Positions 14,711 to 35,503 of a DNA stretch of 64,000 bases are shown here, in pieces; position 1 is the first letter of the stretch, and the number at the start of each line of letters is the position of its first letter. Both the position numbers and the translations under genes were made by a program. Origin of the DNA: Escherichia coli (GTDB taxonomy: Bacteria > Pseudomonadota > Gammaproteobacteria > Enterobacterales > Enterobacteriaceae); NCBI RefSeq assembly GCF_036507355.1, contig NZ_AP027877.1, one strand, 5' to 3'. The notes beneath the pieces were generated by a model that worked only from the letters and a program-made list of their open reading frames with translations, did no database searches and had not been told where the DNA came from.

Positions 14711-14786
14711 TGGCTCCTCTGACTGGACTCGAACCAGTGACATACGGATTAACAGTCCGCCGTTCTACCGACTGAACTACAGAGGA
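14711..14786 (-). tRNA. asnV: tRNA-Asn (GUU)
   Basis: 76-nt exact tRNA-Asn sequence (reverse complement), ends in CCA. Confidence 0.97.
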
Positions 14787-17500: not shown

Positions 17501-17793
17501 TACCCTTTTCCTTTTGACCGTCGGCTATGTGCCAAAAGCGGAATTCCAGTGGTTCTAGAAAAGCTATCATTCCATGGTCAAATTTTGTCGATCACTGCAC
17601 TTATGGAACCGCCATAACATAGGTAGATAGTTGAAGATAGCTAGAACGATGATAGATGATTTTCTTTACAGGGCTGACTTCTAGTCTATCTCATGTAATA
17701 CTCTATATTATATCTAATGTACAATATTAATAGCATTGTGATGTATCGACAACATGGATAGTCCACTGCTATTAAAACTATAATGACATTTAA

Positions 17794-18826
17794 TTGAGAA
17801 ATATAAAAATGACTCTATTAGAAAAATTGTTATCAAAAGGATACTTTCCTAAAGAAGCTCTCCCTCCTTTCTCTACGGAAAAATATGCACGCGCAATTGT
17901 GAATGGATACGATAATCTTCCCCAATTATTTAGAACCGGAAAATTCATAAGTAAGTGCGCTATTCATAATATTTCCAGAAAAGGTACATTACGGAGAAAA
18001 CTTGGAATACCTAATCCCATCAACTTCTTTAGATTAAGTGAGGCAATAACTGAAAATTGGTACGATATATATGAATGCGCAAGTGAATCAACAATATCGT
18101 TGACAACTCCAGACCCTGCCAGCAATGGCGGAAGAGCATTCAACCCAAAGCATTCATTAAATGAGCTTCCAGATATTCATGCAAAACTTAGAAGTAAACA
18201 TAAATATATACTTAAAACCGATATAAGCAGATTTTACCACTCAATATACACTCATAGTATTGCATGGACTTACCATACAAAAGATATTTCAAAAAGAAAC
18301 AGAAGCAATAGTTTATTTGGCAATGTATTAGACAAGCATTCGCAAGATTCGCAAGATGGACAAACAATAGGGCTCCCCATTGGTCCAGATACATCACTTA
18401 TCATAGCAGAGTCTCTGTTATCAAATATTGATCTTAAGCTTAGCGAAAAAGGCATTAGCAATGGCTTACGTTATATAGATGATTATTTCCTAGGGTTCAA
18501 TACAATTGGGGAAGCAGAATCTGCATTAACAATAATGCAGGAACTGTTAAACGAATATGAGTTAGCATTGAACCCCTTGAAAACAGAAATCATACAATTA
18601 CCAATTGAATTCGAGCCATTAGCAATTTCAGAACTAAGGGCATTTTCATTTAGAGATACAGCTGGCGGTCAGAAATCAGATTTAATGCATTATTTCAACA
18701 TAGCTTTCAAGGCAGCAAAAGATTTACCAACGGAACCAATATTAAAATATGCAGTATCAAGGACATTTGAAGTAAATGTTACTGCTGAAAACTATCCTGT
18801 TTTTGAAAATTTTATATTACAATGTG
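17794..18826 (+). pseudogene. Reverse transcriptase (stand-alone UG/DRT-like), 5' portion, interrupted by IS1
   Basis: RT motifs in order: RKLGIPNP (fingers), KTDISRFYHSI (motif A), GLPIGPDTSLIIAE (B'), LRYIDDYFLG (C, YxDD); TTG at 17794 or ATG at 17809; ORF runs into IS1. Confidence 0.8.
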
Positions 18827-18881
18827 GGTGATGCTGCCAACTTACTGATTTAGTGTATGATGGTGTTTTTGAGGTGCTCCA

Positions 18882-19157
18882 GTGGCTTCTGTTTCTATCA
18901 GCTGTCCCTCCTGTTCAGCTACTGACGGGGTGGTGCGTAACGGCAAAAGCACCGCCGGACATCAGCGCTATCTCTGCTCTCACTGTCGTAAAACATGGCA
19001 ACTGCAGTTCACTTACACCGCTTCTCAACCCGGTACGCACCAGAAAATCATTGATATGGCCATGAATGGCGTTGGATGCCGGGCAACAGCCCGCATTATG
19101 GGCGTTGGCCTCAACACGATTTTACGTCACTTAAAAAACTCAGGCCGCAGTCGGTAA
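18882..19157 (+). CDS. insA: IS1 protein InsA
   Basis: 91-aa ORF inside IS1. Confidence 0.95.
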
Positions 19158-19579
19158 CCTCGCGCATACAGCCGGGCAGTGACGTCATCGTCTGCGCGGA
19201 AATGGACGAACAGTGGGGCTATGTCGGGGCTAAATCGCGCCAGCGCTGGCTGTTTTACGCGTATGACAGGCTCCGGAAGACGGTTGTTGCGCACGTATTC
19301 GGTGAACGCACGATGGCGACGCTGGGGCGTCTTATGAGCCTGCTGTCACCCTTTGACGTGGTGATATGGATGACGGATGGCTGGCCGCTGTATGAATCCC
19401 GCCTGAAGGGAAAGCTGCACGTAATCAGCAAGCGATATACGCAGCGAATTGAGCGGCATAACCTGAATCTGAGGCAGCACCTGGCACGGCTGGGACGGAA
19501 GTCGCTGTCGTTCTCAAAATCGGTGGAGCTGCATGACAAAGTCATCGGGCATTATCTGAACATAAAACACTATCAATAA
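19076..19579 (+). CDS. insB: IS1 transposase InsB reading frame (made as InsAB' by frameshift)
   Basis: 167-aa ORF overlapping insA in the -1 frame. Confidence 0.9.
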
Positions 19580-19603
19580 GTTGGAGTCATTACCTACAAT
19601 GTG

Positions 19604-19881
19604 TTACAGCTGACAGTAGCACATTAAAATACACCGTCAATCAGCTTATAAAATACAAAAGAATAGGTTATGTTCAGAACGTTGAGAACATTTCGCATAT
19701 TTTGAGACAATTAGCAATAACTGAAAGCTCACTTGGCCATGGACACGAAGTTGCTTATTGCCTATGGCTTTATTTGATACTACGCATCCCCATACCAGAA
19801 GTCGTCGTTAAAAATGTGGTACCAATGAGAGATCCATTTGTTGCAATTTTGTTATGCGATTGCAGGCAAAAAACCTCATGA
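19604..19881 (+). pseudogene. Reverse transcriptase, 3' portion (C-terminal 92 codons)
   Basis: Reading frame of 17794..18826 resumes after IS1 minus one TSD copy and stays open to TGA at 19879..19881 (translated by hand). Confidence 0.7.
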
Positions 19882-20171
19882 CTTTTATACCTGATTTCTC
19901 AATTTATGAGCAAATGATGGTGATGGAAGAGCTATCGGGCGATATGTAGATTTTTGTCTATGAGATGCTTGCAAAAGGATGGTTTCAACCATTATCAAAC
20001 CAAAATCCAATTAGTCAAAATGAGTGTTATAGGTTCCTATTGAATTCAGGTGTTTTTTTCTATAATGAACATCTCTCATTAACTATTATGGCTGAAAGTC
20101 CAATTGATACAGATGGCTCGGCAGAGGGATTCAGTGGTTGAAATTAAAAATTATCTGTAAATAACTAACCC

Positions 20172-20449: not shown

Positions 20450-21409
20450 TTATTCCTTCTTCCATTCGTGCGCGTAAACCTGCTTCACCCAGCGACCGCG
20501 CCCGTCGCCATGCCCCAGGTCCATCGCCACCATTGCCAGCGCCTCTTTTTCGCTGAATCCCTGCGCCAGATACCGGCGAATATCGTCCTGCGCCAGATAC
20601 CGGCGAATATCGTCCTGCGCCCAGGCGTAACGCAGCGAATGTGGGGAGTATTTGCCCGTCAGCCCCATACGCAAAGTCTGGTTGCGCCAGTATTTCATTG
20701 CCTGTTTAAGGCTTGCCGCATCAATCAGCCTGCCGTTGCGCAGTCCTGCCACCACAATGGCATTATCGAGCGCCCGTTTAACTGCGCCAGCATTCTGAAT
20801 AAGGGTATCGCGGGGCCGCCCGCCTTTGGTGCCAAACACGATGGTTAGCCGGGTGGCTCCACGTTCAAGCGACTGCCGCCACGTCAGCAATGAACGTGAA
20901 CAGCGTACCGCCTCCTGTGAACGTAACCCCATCAGCCGCGCCAGCTCCAGCGCTGCCGCCAGTCCTGCGTCTTTCAGCCGGGCAGTCTCTGCCATCTGTT
21001 GATAATATTCCGGCGTGATGGCTTTCCGTGTACCATTGCGGGATACGCCAGCCAGCCCCAGCGATTTATTCGATATCCGCTCACTCTGCGCCAGTTTTTC
21101 GCGCCCGGCCTGCGTCAGTATTTTACGGATAGCCGCCGTTTCGTTATGCAGCGTCTGTTTCTGAATACCCTGCGCCAGTCGCATCTGAATATACGCCTCA
21201 ATATGCTTCGCCTTTAAATGATGGACATAGCGTATCTGAACGTTCAGTTCCGTCAGTCGTTCGCAGAACCGTTCTGCCATGGCGATACGGTCATGGACAG
21301 TCTTGTGCGCCCCGCCAGCCTGCCGCGCCAGGTTTTTCATCTCTCTTTCCAGCATACCCATTTTGCTTTTCCTCTTATCTCGCTCCTGATTTTCACAAAA
21401 CCACAACAC
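20450..21409 (-). CDS. Tyrosine recombinase-like protein (second recombinase of the island)
   Basis: 319 aa; box II-like HSLRYAWA and downstream LGHGDGRGRWVKQVYAH with candidate catalytic Tyr; contains in-frame 9-aa tandem duplication. Confidence 0.65.
   Translation of the reverse strand: MLWFCENQERDKRKSKMGMLEREMKNLARQAGGAHKTVHDRIAMAERFCERLTELNVQIRYVHHLKAKHIEAYIQMRLAQGIQKQTLHNETAAIRKILTQAGREKLAQSERISNKSLGLAGVSRNGTRKAITPEYYQQMAETARLKDAGLAAALELARLMGLRSQEAVRCSRSLLTWRQSLERGATRLTIVFGTKGGRPRDTLIQNAGAVKRALDNAIVVAGLRNGRLIDAASLKQAMKYWRNQTLRMGLTGKYSPHSLRYAWAQDDIRRYLAQDDIRRYLAQGFSEKEALAMVAMDLGHGDGRGRWVKQVYAHEWKKE
20565..20618. repeat. Perfect 27-bp tandem duplication inside the recombinase gene
   Basis: gccagataccggcgaatatcgtcctgc repeated twice, giving DDIRRYLAQ-DDIRRYLAQ. 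Confidence 0.9.
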
Positions 21410-22253
21410 ACAACGGATACAGCTTTCCCCGGCGCATAGGCCGATAGCCCCTGATTTTTGTCGGGGCTGCGAGCAGTACCTGAGCGCCGGGGCGACGGCT
21501 GTTGAGGTTTTGCGGGGTATCGGTTGTGCTCTCAGAGCAGCCGCCAGCGTGAGCTGGTCATCCCCCGGACCGTCCTGGTGGTCCCCCTCCGGTACTGGCT
21601 CATGTTCTCCTTTGGTGAATGAATGGTTGAAATAAATGCTGAAAAGCGACGTCAGAAGCTCGCCTGTGGCTGGAACAGTTGATATGACTGGTGCAGATGA
21701 AAATTTCTGCGGGCGTCAGTCTCTCACTCTGCGTGAGCGACTGACGCCCTGGTCTGGCGCAGGCGCTGAAAATTACACTCTGGTGCAGGATGGCGGCCAC
21801 GCGGCAGCAAATGCCTTCGGCAAATGCAGGCCGCAGCCCGTCATGTAAAGGGCGCTGGTAATCAGCAGGGTATAAGTGGGCCGGAGAAATTCCGGCAAAG
21901 AGAAACCGTGCAGCCGGTGAAGGCTGTTGCCGTTAAGCGATGACGATGAAGCCGTCCAGTGTATGTACTCTTAGCCTCAAACGCTTTCGCGTTCCGGTAT
22001 TGCGGAGGTCGTACCGGTAGCAGGGGGCTGGTCGTCCTGATAAATCAGGGGCTTCTTGCAGACCATGAAGCCAAAGGGGCTGTCAACCGACAGCTTATTG
22101 CAGGAGAGAGATTACACCGTAATTTCTGGCGCAGAAAGGGGAAACTCATTTTTCTGGAAATTGAGTTTCCCCCTGAATTTATGGAAAGTTTGTGAATGGA
22201 ACACTGCCGCGCTTCGCTTGTCGTCTCCCGGTGTGCGATTTGCTGTATCAGGA

Positions 22254-22502
22254 TCATCGCTTTCGCATGAACCTTTCCAGGCGATTACCTTTGCCGTCGA
22301 AGTATCTGGAAGGCCAGATGATCTCTGGAGCTATCTCCAGCGCATCTGCAATAAGTTTTTCTCCGCGCGGCCACGGGCGGGAAAGTGCATTTGCCAGTGT
22401 GGAAGAACTCAACCCTGCTTTACGCGATACCTCAGCCAGTGAGGTCCCTTTCTTTCTTAATCCGGCAATGATATCTGCCGGATGCCAGTCATCTTTATTC
22501 AT
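22254..22502 (-). CDS. Ner-like DNA-binding protein (Nlp/SfsB family)
   Basis: 82 aa; WHPADIIAGLRKKGTSLA...GLSSSTLANALSRPWP closely resembles Nlp/Ner. Confidence 0.8.
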   Translation of the reverse strand: MNKDDWHPADIIAGLRKKGTSLAEVSRKAGLSSSTLANALSRPWPRGEKLIADALEIAPEIIWPSRYFDGKGNRLERFMRKR

Positions 22503-23283: not shown

Positions 23284-23299
23284 ATCGCAGAAAATAAAA

Positions 23300-23400
23300 A
23301 ACCCCGCTGGTGAGGCAGGGTTCTTTATTTTTCGTTCTCAGACTGCTTATAGCGACCTGAGCAACGTTGCGCGACAATACAATCCTAGCAGAATAAGTTT
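23300..23400 (-). ncRNA. Candidate antisense sRNA antitoxin (Orz-like) with 20-nt match to toxin 5' UTR
   Basis: gacaatacaatcctagcaga (23373..23392) repeats 19/20 at 23545..23564 in the toxin leader; stem-loop with flanking T-run near 23290..23330 could terminate a minus-strand transcript. Confidence 0.3.
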
Positions 23401-23788: not shown

Positions 23789-25066
23789 TTACGACGCCTG
23801 TTTCAGGCGGCGGGCATACTGGTAAGCTGAAACATACCCGTCACTGTTTGCATCAAGATAATCTGACCACCATTGCATCATCTCGATCCGCTCTTCCAGA
23901 TATTCAGCCTTGTGAATATACGCAGCGCGGACGCTGTTTCTTTCCTGGTGACTCATTTGTTTTTCAATCGCTTCTTTGCTCCACAGCCCCGATTCACTCA
24001 ACGCACTACATGCCATCGCCCGGAAGCCATGCCCGCAGACGTCTTTTTTGGTGTCATAGCCCATCACCCGCAGCGCTTTATTCACGGTGTTGTCGCTCAT
24101 GCACTTATCCTGGTCGTACTCGCCGGGAAAGATAAAGGCCAGATGACCGGAGAGGGCTTCGATCTGTTTCAGGATCGCAATTGCCTGATCCGACAGCGGC
24201 ACGATATGTTGAATTTTCATTTTCGACCCCCGGTAAGAGAAGCGCACATTTTCGATCTGCTCGCGTTCTTCCGCGATCACCCACAGCTTTTGCTGCCAGT
24301 CGATTTCACTCCAGCGAGCAAAGCGTAGCTCGCTGGAGCGCACAAAAAATATCAGTGACAACTTAAGGGCGTATTTCGTCAGCAGCCTGCCGCAGTAGTT
24401 ATCCGTACGGGTTAAAAGCTCTGGCAGCCTGTCCAGCGACAGGGCCGGGTAATGATTAGTCTCTGGCGCAGCAAATTCACCATCCAGATACAGCGCGGGG
24501 TTCGCTTTGAGCAACTGCTTTTTCATCGCGTAGTGCATGATGTCGGTGACATAGTTTTTCAGCCGGGCGGTGATCTCCAGAAAGCCTTTGCTCTCCACCT
24601 TACGCAGCGTGACCAGCAAATCCTCTGTTTCGATCTCCCCGATAAGGCGATCCCCGATATCCGGGAAAACATACATTTCCAGTCTGCGCATAACCGTTTT
24701 CGCGTAATGTTCAGACCAGCGTTTATGCTCGCCATGCCAGTTAGTGGCGACCTGGCTGAACGTCTGTCCGTTTTTCTTCTTCTGTTTCTCCGTCTGCTTC
24801 ACCGCAGCAGGATCGACGCCTGCATGAATGTTATTGCGTGCCGCTTCCCGTAAACGGCGAGCCTGCAACAGCGAGATCCCCGGGTAGGGGCCAAAGGCCA
24901 GCTTTTTCTCTTTCCCGTCGATACGGTACTTCATGTACCAGAGTTTTGAGCCATTAGGTTTGATCAACAGGTACAGTCCGGAACTGTCTGTCATTTTGAA
25001 AGGTTTGTCGGAGGGTTTGATCTTGCGAATCGTGGTATCTGTTAATGCCATAGCGGGGGGCTCCAT
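23789..25066 (-). CDS. P4-type tyrosine integrase
   Basis: 425 aa (or start at MALTDTTIRK, 25051); arm-binding N-terminus and C-terminal catalytic domain (HGFRAMA); adjacent to tRNA-Asn. Confidence 0.9.
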   Translation of the reverse strand: MEPPAMALTDTTIRKIKPSDKPFKMTDSSGLYLLIKPNGSKLWYMKYRIDGKEKKLAFGPYPGISLLQARRLREAARNNIHAGVDPAAVKQTEKQKKKNGQTFSQVATNWHGEHKRWSEHYAKTVMRRLEMYVFPDIGDRLIGEIETEDLLVTLRKVESKGFLEITARLKNYVTDIMHYAMKKQLLKANPALYLDGEFAAPETNHYPALSLDRLPELLTRTDNYCGRLLTKYALKLSLIFFVRSSELRFARWSEIDWQQKLWVIAEEREQIENVRFSYRGSKMKIQHIVPLSDQAIAILKQIEALSGHLAFIFPGEYDQDKCMSDNTVNKALRVMGYDTKKDVCGHGFRAMACSALSESGLWSKEAIEKQMSHQERNSVRAAYIHKAEYLEERIEMMQWWSDYLDANSDGYVSAYQYARRLKQAS

Positions 25067-25211: not shown

Positions 25212-25233
25212 AAATCTGGCTCCTCTGACTGGA
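25212..25233. repeat. attR of asnU island (overlaps 3' end of intact tRNA-Asn)
   Basis: 22-nt perfect match to 17114..17135. Confidence 0.8.
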
Positions 25234-25292
25234 CTCGAACCAGTGACATACGGATTAACAGTCCGCCGTTCTACCGACTGAACTACAGAGGA
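25217..25292 (-). tRNA. asnU: tRNA-Asn (GUU)
   Basis: 76-nt exact tRNA-Asn sequence; position between cbl and yeeO. Confidence 0.97.
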
Positions 25293-27040: not shown

Positions 27041-27116
27041 TCCTCTGTAGTTCAGTCGGTAGAACGGCGGACTGTTAATCCGTATGTCACTGGTTCGAGT
27101 CCAGTCAGAGGAGCCA
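27041..27116 (+). tRNA. asnW: tRNA-Asn (GUU)
   Basis: 76-nt exact tRNA-Asn sequence, plus strand. Confidence 0.97.
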
Positions 27117-35427: not shown

Positions 35428-35503
35428 TGGCTCCTCTGACTGGACTCGAACCAGTGACATACGGATTAACAGTCCGCCGTTCTACCGACTGAACTACAGA
35501 GGA
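35428..35503 (-). tRNA. asnT: tRNA-Asn (GUU)
   Basis: 76-nt exact tRNA-Asn sequence. Confidence 0.97.

Follow-up and report, generated by a model that had tools for sequence, protein, structure and literature searches.

The stretch of Escherichia coli DNA analyzed here (64,000 bp, hereafter the window) shares 99.9% identity with E. coli strain G4/9, and the segment of interest in it lies in a small island at a transfer RNA (tRNA)-Asn gene. On the minus strand, the order is tRNA-Asn, a P4-type integrase gene, two XRE regulator genes (on the opposite strand), a Ner/SfsB-like HTH_35 gene, a long stretch poor in open reading frames (ORFs; hereafter the gap), a gene annotated as encoding an 'integrase domain-containing' protein, and cargo. 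With the RefSeq start of the gene downstream (ATG at 21361), the gap spans 21362-22253 and measures 892 bp; the initial annotation had bounded it at 21410-22253, of which the right end holds and the left end is shifted to 21362 by that ATG. Within the gap are found, in this order, a terminator-like hairpin, hairpins resembling the Rfam motif STAXI, a near-invariant block, a long palindrome, the Rfam motif EFASI, and a helix formed by the EFASI tail. The whole gap is one conserved multi-part series of folded elements across Enterobacterales. The principal components, together with the downstream gene, are as follows.

21711-21749, minus strand: palindrome with arms at 21711-21727 and 21733-21749, each of 17 nt (16/17 paired, 94%), and a 5-nt loop.
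21794-21841, minus strand: near-invariant block of ~50 nt (ACGGGCTGCGGCCTGCA...TTTGCTGCCGCGTGRCCGT), delimited by exact-pattern scan, alignment, and fold.
21470-21603, minus strand: EFASI RNA (Rfam RF02957), a full-length model match with 112.4 bits against a gathering score of 51.2.
20450-21361, minus strand: gene for an MpsA-like, tyrosine-recombinase-type putative relaxase with PF12834 and PF12835 domains ('MOB_M').

The palindrome was recovered by repeat search with exactly the geometry given in the initial annotation, i.e., a 17-bp stem with 16/17 positions paired and a 5-nt loop. It is the sole element in the window with 17-nt arms, at most one mismatch, and a loop of 3-10 nt, and 20 shuffled windows contained none. 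Folded as RNA, the minus strand reaches -32.7 kcal/mol (z = -6.8), a stability attained by 0/200 shuffles; the DNA fold amounts to -20.3 kcal/mol. Relatives were collected by an exact-pattern scan with an invariant core taken from the first alignment, which yielded 21 loci in Citrobacter, Salmonella, Klebsiella, Cedecea, Mixta, Pantoea, Brenneria, and others. To counter the bias of the pattern, loci were also gathered through an EFASI anchor in viral contigs and through protein only, where six proteins ~70% identical to that of the window led to eight loci. The hairpin is present in 26/26 distinct relatives gathered by DNA pattern and in 8/8 loci gathered via the protein alone, where it is situated 325-372 bp upstream of the start codon; in the window, the distance to the relaxase-like start codon is 350-388 bp. 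Conservation in related islands, to which the initial annotation had pointed as informative, thus extends to every relative checked, at 325-388 bp upstream of the relaxase-like gene.

The pattern of substitution indicates what has been maintained. The base of the stem is conserved (GCGTCA.../...TGACGC; as RNA, G[U/G]GCGUCA... / ...UGACGC[A/C]C), and the upper stem varies by lineage with pairing kept (CTCAC/GTGAG, GTCGC/GCGAC, CCGC/GCGG, CCCG/CGGG, CCCGC/GTGGG, and TCGC/GCGA). In most relatives, the conserved arms are 16 nt apart and the spacer is itself a covarying stem. Changes on both sides occur in 7/16 hairpin pairs of the 26-sequence alignment, in which 93.4% of cells are paired. The covariation score of the whole structure is 0.142, compared with 0.068 in column shuffles (0/500 of which reach 0.142), and controls in which the partners were slid by 1-3 columns score at most 0.064. 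RNAalifold independently predicts the same stem. The hairpin is a real, evolutionarily conserved stem-loop, and its structure is selected. The element belongs to neither Rfam model, and the EFASI match begins 108 nt downstream of it.

The description of the segment as poor in ORFs was borne out, the longest ORFs in the gap being of 70-78 amino acids. A chance palindrome in a decayed protein-coding gene, which the initial annotation had named as the scenario that would deprive the palindrome of meaning, is given a negligible probability here. RefSeq does annotate short 'hypothetical proteins' at the gap in some genomes (plus strand), which speaks for this explanation; however, the frames of these ORFs differ between genomes, and a Pfam search of the translated 'hypothetical proteins' from relatives returned no match. 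Furthermore, in a six-frame openness test on 27 related loci, no frame was open across the conserved core (open stretches with minima of 9-34 codons and medians of 28-65 codons). The coding or pseudogene reading was rejected on these grounds, and the compensatory changes in the covarying stem and the lack of an equivalent repeat in shuffles exclude a chance palindrome. Similarly, a terminator or attenuator between the Ner-like transcript and the relaxase-like gene is highly improbable. The hairpin is very stable, GC-rich, and on the sense strand, which speaks for such an element, but the palindrome is not an intrinsic terminator because no U-tract follows the stem, either in the window, as initially noted, or in any relative, and the terminator scan makes no call; on this basis the candidate was rejected. 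It also lies ~500 nt past the stop codon of the Ner-like gene and is flanked on either side by other conserved elements.

The near-invariant block is located 433-480 bp upstream of the relaxase-like start codon in the window and is retained, with a few substitutions, in the loci found through protein only. It can form an imperfect stem-loop on the minus strand, which folds better by 5.4 kcal/mol on average. The helix of the block is almost invariant and therefore shows no covariation, and the changes seen in protein-anchored loci break pairs. This suggests that the block is constrained mainly as sequence. It is a candidate sequence-specific recognition site, by analogy the core of an origin of transfer (oriT). 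The start of the block adjoins an unrelated gene in some loci; therefore, the minimal unit comprises the block, the hairpin, EFASI, and the gene. Every locus with enough sequence displays, on one strand, the HTH_35 gene (sometimes followed by a toxin-antitoxin pair), an optional STAXI or STAXI-like element, the block, the hairpin, EFASI, and the gene with PF12834 and PF12835. Modules of this kind were found in Escherichia, Citrobacter, Salmonella, Klebsiella, Serratia, Pantoea, Brenneria, Pectobacterium, and Tatumella, and they are located at island ends with varied cargo, as expected of a horizontally moving element. Among 5426 complete E. coli genomes, the gap has near matches in 219 and distant matches in 799 (~15%).

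Direct repeats of CTGCRCCAG accompany the block and the palindrome. Four exact copies are present in the gap in a single orientation (minus strand), and one of them overlaps an A+T-rich tract.

22126-22134, minus strand: CTGCRCCAG copy (CTGCGCCAG), with a flanking TTTCTGCRCCAG that is conserved in relatives.
21780-21788, minus strand: CTGCACCAG copy directly after the block, the best conserved copy and the only well-conserved one.
21754-21762, minus strand: CTGCGCCAG copy just before the palindrome, found by repeat search.
21688-21696, minus strand: CTGCACCAG copy just after the palindrome.
21692-21710, minus strand: A+T-rich tract flanked by a 5-bp inverted repeat (GCAGA AATTTTCA TCTGC), defined from sequence and fold; particular to the subtype of the window and overlapping the preceding copy.

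The copies at 21780-21788 and 21754-21762 are separated by an A+T-rich spacer (TAATTTTCAG) just before the palindrome. The 9-mer occurs 20 times in the window and corresponds on the other strand to the common codons CTG-GCG-CAG; as E. coli coding DNA contains this sequence frequently, a statistic of its enrichment is unreliable. The copies as iterons or binding sites are thus a weak lead of uncertain significance.

The remaining elements of the gap are associated with two Rfam motifs. EFASI stands for 'Enterobacteriaceae, Frequently Around STAXI and Integrases' (Rfam, quoted in PMC12370729); according to Rfam, it occurs upstream of integrase genes and, at a distance of several hundred bp, downstream of STAXI, and no function has been assigned (PMC12370729). 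The authors who described STAXI reported its location near 'XerDC integrases' and genes for single-strand binding protein, topoisomerase, and antirestriction proteins, and considered a possible role with single-stranded DNA (PMC2864571). The layout of the window matches the description in Rfam exactly, with EFASI at full score 109-242 bp upstream of the relaxase-like start codon and similarly placed in every related locus with enough sequence. The palindrome and the block sit between both motifs and outside both models. The following elements were additionally identified.

21945-22100, minus strand: STAXI-like region of tandem small hairpins, which aligns to a Klebsiella STAXI.
22138-22172, minus strand: terminator-like hairpin with arms at 22138-22152 and 22158-22172, each of 15 nt (14/15 paired).
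21427-21492, minus strand: long-range helix in which the EFASI 3' tail CCCCGGCGC (21484-21492) pairs with GCGCCGGGG (21427-21435).

A search of the window with the Rfam STAXI model of tandem pseudoknotted hairpins (RF01728) gave no hit even at E <= 10. In the Klebsiella locus L020, positions 3126-3266, directly upstream of the block, are a STAXI that passes the Rfam threshold with 42 bits, and the region 21945-22100 of the window aligns to it with compensatory changes, e.g., UGGUC/GACCA versus CAACC/GGUUG. Judged from this alignment, the region is a diverged relative of STAXI. A 175-bp piece that matches 21827-22002 of the window, in the STAXI-like part, with ~80% identity is found in E. coli ECONIH1 (L005) and in ~400 other E. 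coli genomes. The islands with this piece have neither EFASI nor the PF12835 gene, and the copy in L005 is near STnc100, a tRNA-like remnant, and iro genes.

The long-range helix is outside the Rfam EFASI model. Its GCGCCGGGG arm is ~66 nt before the start codon, ahead of the relaxase-like gene's ribosome-binding site, and three covarying haplotypes are found among 20 loci: CCCCGGCGC/GCGCCGGGG, CTCCGGCGT/ACGCCGGAG, and CCCCGGCGT/ACGCCGGGG. The helix encloses the 3' half of the outer stem of EFASI, and it is therefore either a pseudoknot or an alternative fold. At the other end of the gap, the 11-bp perfect stem initially noted at 22138-22172 proved to be the core of the 15-nt arms. This hairpin folds at -20.1 kcal/mol (z = -4.0). 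That it terminates the Ner-like gene, as initially proposed, is a plausible but weakly supported idea, given that only a poor U-tract (UUUCUG) follows, the terminator scan makes no call, and the hairpin is absent from some relatives. It may instead be a site where a long non-coding transcript is processed near its start, or a terminator that is leaky.

The gene downstream of the gap encodes a product of 303 amino acids, which matches PF12835 with 195.7 bits and PF12834 with 117.4 bits in Pfam. PF12835 serves as the signature of MpsA-type relaxases (PMC10484663), MpsA, which resembles tyrosine recombinases, being the 'atypical relaxase' of Salmonella Genomic Island 1 (SGI1) (PMC6414798). For comparison, oriT_SGI1 was partly rebuilt from the primers in the supplement of PMC6414798, and a metagenome scan with it yielded two SGI1-type loci, one of which (L031) was analyzed. 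The MpsA of this locus matches PF12835 with 42.7 bits and shares 24% identity with the window protein over 294 amino acids (E = 7e-7). In the alignment of the window protein with MpsA, the catalytic R147, K179, H241, R244, and H284 do not vary, and the C-terminal Tyr is likewise conserved. By sequence, the gene is a member of the MpsA (PF12835) family. Searches of the protein against PHROGs, NCBIfam, and PDB sequences gave generic matches at the level of integrases or XerC, or nothing. An in-frame 27-bp tandem duplication at ~20567-20620 (AQDDIRRYL twice) is present, and the product has 303 amino acids compared with the family-typical 294; strain G4/9, in which the gene is of equal length, probably carries the same duplication. 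On plasmids, the family is rare (50/72,556 records), so that the region does not qualify as a leading region typical of plasmids.

The complete tyrosine-recombinase catalytic signature, a palindrome close to the gene, and variable cargo beside the module would all be in keeping with a true recombinase that performs resolution, inversion, or cassette capture with the palindrome as its core site. This is nevertheless very unlikely. The palindrome exists as one copy in 64 kb, whereas a duplex core of the lox, dif, or att type needs at least two; arms of ~11-13 bp and a spacer of 6-8 bp would be expected, whereas most relatives have the 16-nt spacer that forms a covarying stem. Furthermore, a P4-type integrase of the island's own is encoded at the tRNA, and the sole characterized member of PF12835 acts in mobilization, not in recombination (PMC6414798).

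SGI1 offers a detailed comparison for the gap. Its minimal oriT is a GC-rich sequence of 125 bp with three inverted repeats (18016-18140), located 304-428 bp upstream of the mpsA start at 17712 and within former small-ORF annotations (PMC6414798). The three-hairpin structure is retained via compensatory changes in distant relatives (PMC8409611), and the oriT region of the SGI1-type locus analyzed here folds into three hairpins, as published. Between this oriT and mpsA lies the essential core of sgm-sRNA, which is cut from the 3' end of an RNA of 650-700 nt running in the same direction as mpsA (PMC9299015). The primary RNA has a terminator-like, GC-rich 11-bp repeat ~66 nt after the transcription start and a hairpin beside the mpsA start codon (PMC9299015).

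The layout of the window matches this arrangement in several respects. Both systems have a gene for a relaxase-like tyrosine recombinase of PF12835 and, upstream of it, a long ORF-poor region formerly mis-annotated with small ORFs. In both, a multi-hairpin, GC-rich element with compensatory changes occurs ~300-430 bp upstream of the start codon; a small-RNA region, which in the window is EFASI, lies between the hairpin element and the gene; and a terminator-like hairpin marks the 5' end of the region (22138-22172 in the window). The hairpin beside the mpsA start has its counterpart in the covarying helix between the EFASI 3' tail and the segment before the ribosome-binding site, and all elements run in the direction of the gene in both cases.

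Related arrangements have been described elsewhere. In pIGRK, the oriT is upstream of the gene for MobK, a relaxase resembling tyrosine recombinases, and contains three imperfect inverted repeats and direct repeats (PMC8152469). The window region likewise joins hairpins with repeated CTGCRCCAG, a likeness by description, although MobK is without the N-terminal domain and pIGRK is a plasmid rather than an island. Furthermore, MOB_M has been reported as the commonest chromosomal relaxase class, often annotated as integrase and near a true integrase in 96% of cases, and the first intergenic region upstream of the MOB_M relaxase gene has been taken as the one that holds oriT (preprint 10.64898/2026.01.13.699239). 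The window fits the operational definition of the resulting candidate oriT_rM families, with the gap as the first large intergenic region upstream of a MOB_M gene near an integrase. These families cover E. coli, Salmonella, and Klebsiella chromosomes, and the preprint is without a dissection of internal hairpins or Rfam motifs (10.64898/2026.01.13.699239).

By analogy with SGI1, the gap is probably the cis-acting and RNA-coding part of a conjugative mobilization module of the MpsA (MOB_M) type, carried by a small tRNA-Asn island, and a probability of roughly 55% is assigned to this reading. The conservation of the elements, their covariation, the strand bias described below, the membership of the gene family, and the positional match to SGI1 are direct observations, and nicking, transfer, RNA processing, and the use of a helper element are transposed from the better-known island. 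Briefly, the block and the palindrome (~21690-21850) would constitute the oriT core. Once the hairpin is extruded, the relaxase would recognize its conserved stem base together with flanking sequence and introduce a nick close by, and a helper conjugative element would then export the excised island. The whole region would be transcribed with or after the Ner-like gene as a long RNA, which would be trimmed to EFASI as the positional counterpart of the sgm-sRNA that SGI1 mobilization needs. A mobilization module would also account for the occurrence of STAXI near 'XerDC integrases', ssb, topoisomerase, and antirestriction genes, and for the idea of its authors about single-stranded DNA (PMC2864571). 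In the literature consulted, no connection of EFASI or STAXI with MpsA-type relaxases seems to have been drawn. For the palindrome, the initial annotation had suggested the binding site of a recombinase or regulator, or a piece of a structured RNA. These ideas were sound, in that it is a conserved, covarying hairpin among Rfam RNA motifs and upstream of a tyrosine-recombinase-like gene; the MpsA relaxase family of that gene, the presence of EFASI in the gap, and the unity of the gap as one conserved multi-part element had been missed.

A more specific and more tentative version of this reading may be formulated. The block and the palindrome would be the oriT of very widespread small enterobacterial islands, nicked on the sense strand by the tyrosine-recombinase-type relaxase, with EFASI and STAXI as relaxosome RNAs and EFASI as the functional analogue of sgm-sRNA. 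A sense-strand nick would fit a 3'-phosphotyrosyl linkage and a polarity of transfer opposite to that of classical relaxases. Attachment at the 3' end is expected of a tyrosine-recombinase-type enzyme, and a hairpin on the sense strand would then, speculatively, be compatible with the relaxase gene being transferred last.

Several observations weigh against mobilization as the function of the gap. The cis-acting DNA and RNA elements of SGI1 are not alignable with the gap; an Rfam scan of the mob region of L031 gave nothing above threshold and no EFASI, and the rebuilt oriT_SGI1 had no match in E. coli genomes. The argument for an oriT therefore rests on position and architecture, not on cis homology, as no similarity to SGI1 oriT or sgm is detectable. 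The proteins are only 24% identical, and no MpsB-like gene follows after 20450, MpsB showing no similarity to the window protein. MpsA is without the N-terminal PF12834 domain that is present in the window protein, and this fused domain might replace MpsB. Unlike SGI1, the island of the window is tiny and without tra genes or a replication module; the helpers of SGI1 are IncA and IncC plasmids. No type IV secretion or coupling-protein genes were seen near the module in the Citrobacter, Pectobacterium, Serratia, Tatumella, Lonsdalea, and P0091 loci inspected, and no helper was identified. Furthermore, the PF12835 gene is annotated with a frameshift or internal stop in four E. coli loci (L002, L003, L004, and L006), in which the upstream block, hairpin, and EFASI are intact. 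These loci could be decaying elements or islands that retain only the cis site, and, together with the duplication of 9 amino acids in the window, they raise the possibility that many relaxase-like copies may be decaying.

The strand bias of the folded elements belongs with these reservations. In 26/26 sequences, the minus strand folds into the more stable hairpin, and it has 10 G·U pairs compared with 1 on the plus strand. The sole difference between the window and strain G4/9 within the hairpin changes a C-G pair to U·G on the minus strand; L033 and L034 provide a counter-example, with a minus-strand C·A mismatch. Such a sense-strand bias in G·U pairs is expected of RNA transcribed with the gene, and the covariation could be accounted for entirely by selection acting on RNA. 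As the main alternative to the oriT reading, the palindrome might act purely at the RNA level, as a structural or processing module of a long modular non-coding RNA or 5' leader with no DNA function, e.g., as an entry site for RNase III or RNase E or as a folding clamp, in an RNA that extends from the Ner-like to the relaxase-like gene and yields STAXI and EFASI. In line with this, the hairpin shares the strand of EFASI and is positioned between the STAXI-like and EFASI elements, and its G·U pairs and stability favor the sense strand. A U·G pair is invariant in the helix of the block, where the rare substitutions produce G·U pairs. Additionally, STAXI has been detected by RNA sequencing in Pectobacterium (PMC4710047) and EFASI by reverse transcription polymerase chain reaction in E. 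coli vesicles (PMC12370729), and the oriT hairpins of SGI1 are themselves part of the primary transcript (PMC9299015). However, the conservation of the stem base and of the 50-nt block, which is nearly invariant, has the appearance of sequence-specific protein recognition, and a fixed position upstream of a relaxase-family gene is the classic location of oriT. The two roles are moreover compatible, as in SGI1, and an exclusive role in RNA is considered possible but less likely.

A mobilization module would be carried here by an island with the following further genes upstream of the gap.

22254-22502, minus strand: Ner/SfsB-like winged-helix gene (HTH_35; Pfam PF13693, E = 9e-34).
23789-25066, minus strand: P4-type integrase, the island's own integration module (Pfam; RefSeq of G4/9), adjoining tRNA-Asn at 25220-25292.

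The Ner-like product scores 118.6 bits with the NCBIfam SfsB model, below the cut-off of 150, and a promoter-like site (TTGACA-17-TAAGAT, 22589-22561, minus strand) is found at its gene. The HTH_35 gene is upstream of the gap in relatives too. In most relatives, the same strand carries ahead of it one or more of sRNA-Xcc1, isrK, and the C4 antisense RNA, or all three, followed by a protein of 153-171 amino acids without a family match (L003, L009-L011, L016-L018, L020, L022, L032, L035-L037, L039, and L040; sRNA-Xcc1 alone in L041-L043). This arrangement resembles a cassette of the immunity type of phages P1 and P7; the window lacks it and carries two XRE genes in its place. At 23296-23371 (minus strand), flanked by the P4-type integrase and the second XRE gene, Rfam gave matches below threshold to the type I antitoxin small RNAs OrzO-P (47.8 bits, threshold 60) and ohsC (32 bits).

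On the other side of the module, the cargo of G4/9 after the relaxase-like gene is a reverse transcriptase gene. Compared with G4/9, the window has an extra IS1 at ~18850-19620 (insA/insB ORFs at 18882-19579), in the region ~17800-19900; judged by coordinate offset, it probably falls in the retron-type reverse transcriptase cargo gene of the island and disrupts it. Four tRNA genes with identical scores are present in the window (14714-14786, 25220-25292, 27041-27113, and 35431-35503), and the three with counterparts in G4/9 are tRNA-Asn in the annotation of that strain. We take these genes to be the asn tRNA cluster, a known hot spot of island insertion.

The hairpin and the block are covered by no Rfam model, and even if the mobilization reading were wrong, the hairpin would still stand as a conserved, structured element with good support, to be included in an extended EFASI/STAXI model. 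If the reading is true, a concrete candidate oriT of ~150 bp becomes available for a family of small islands that carry defense genes and other cargo, with related sequence in ~15% of complete E. coli genomes (799/5426) and in many other Enterobacterales. Annotations of an 'integrase domain-containing protein' beside these motifs would then probably mark mobilization modules, not integration modules. Furthermore, EFASI and STAXI would be tied to MpsA-type relaxases and to the sole known small RNA required for conjugative mobilization, so that both orphan Rfam motifs would gain a function and RNA-dependent mobilization would extend beyond SGI1.

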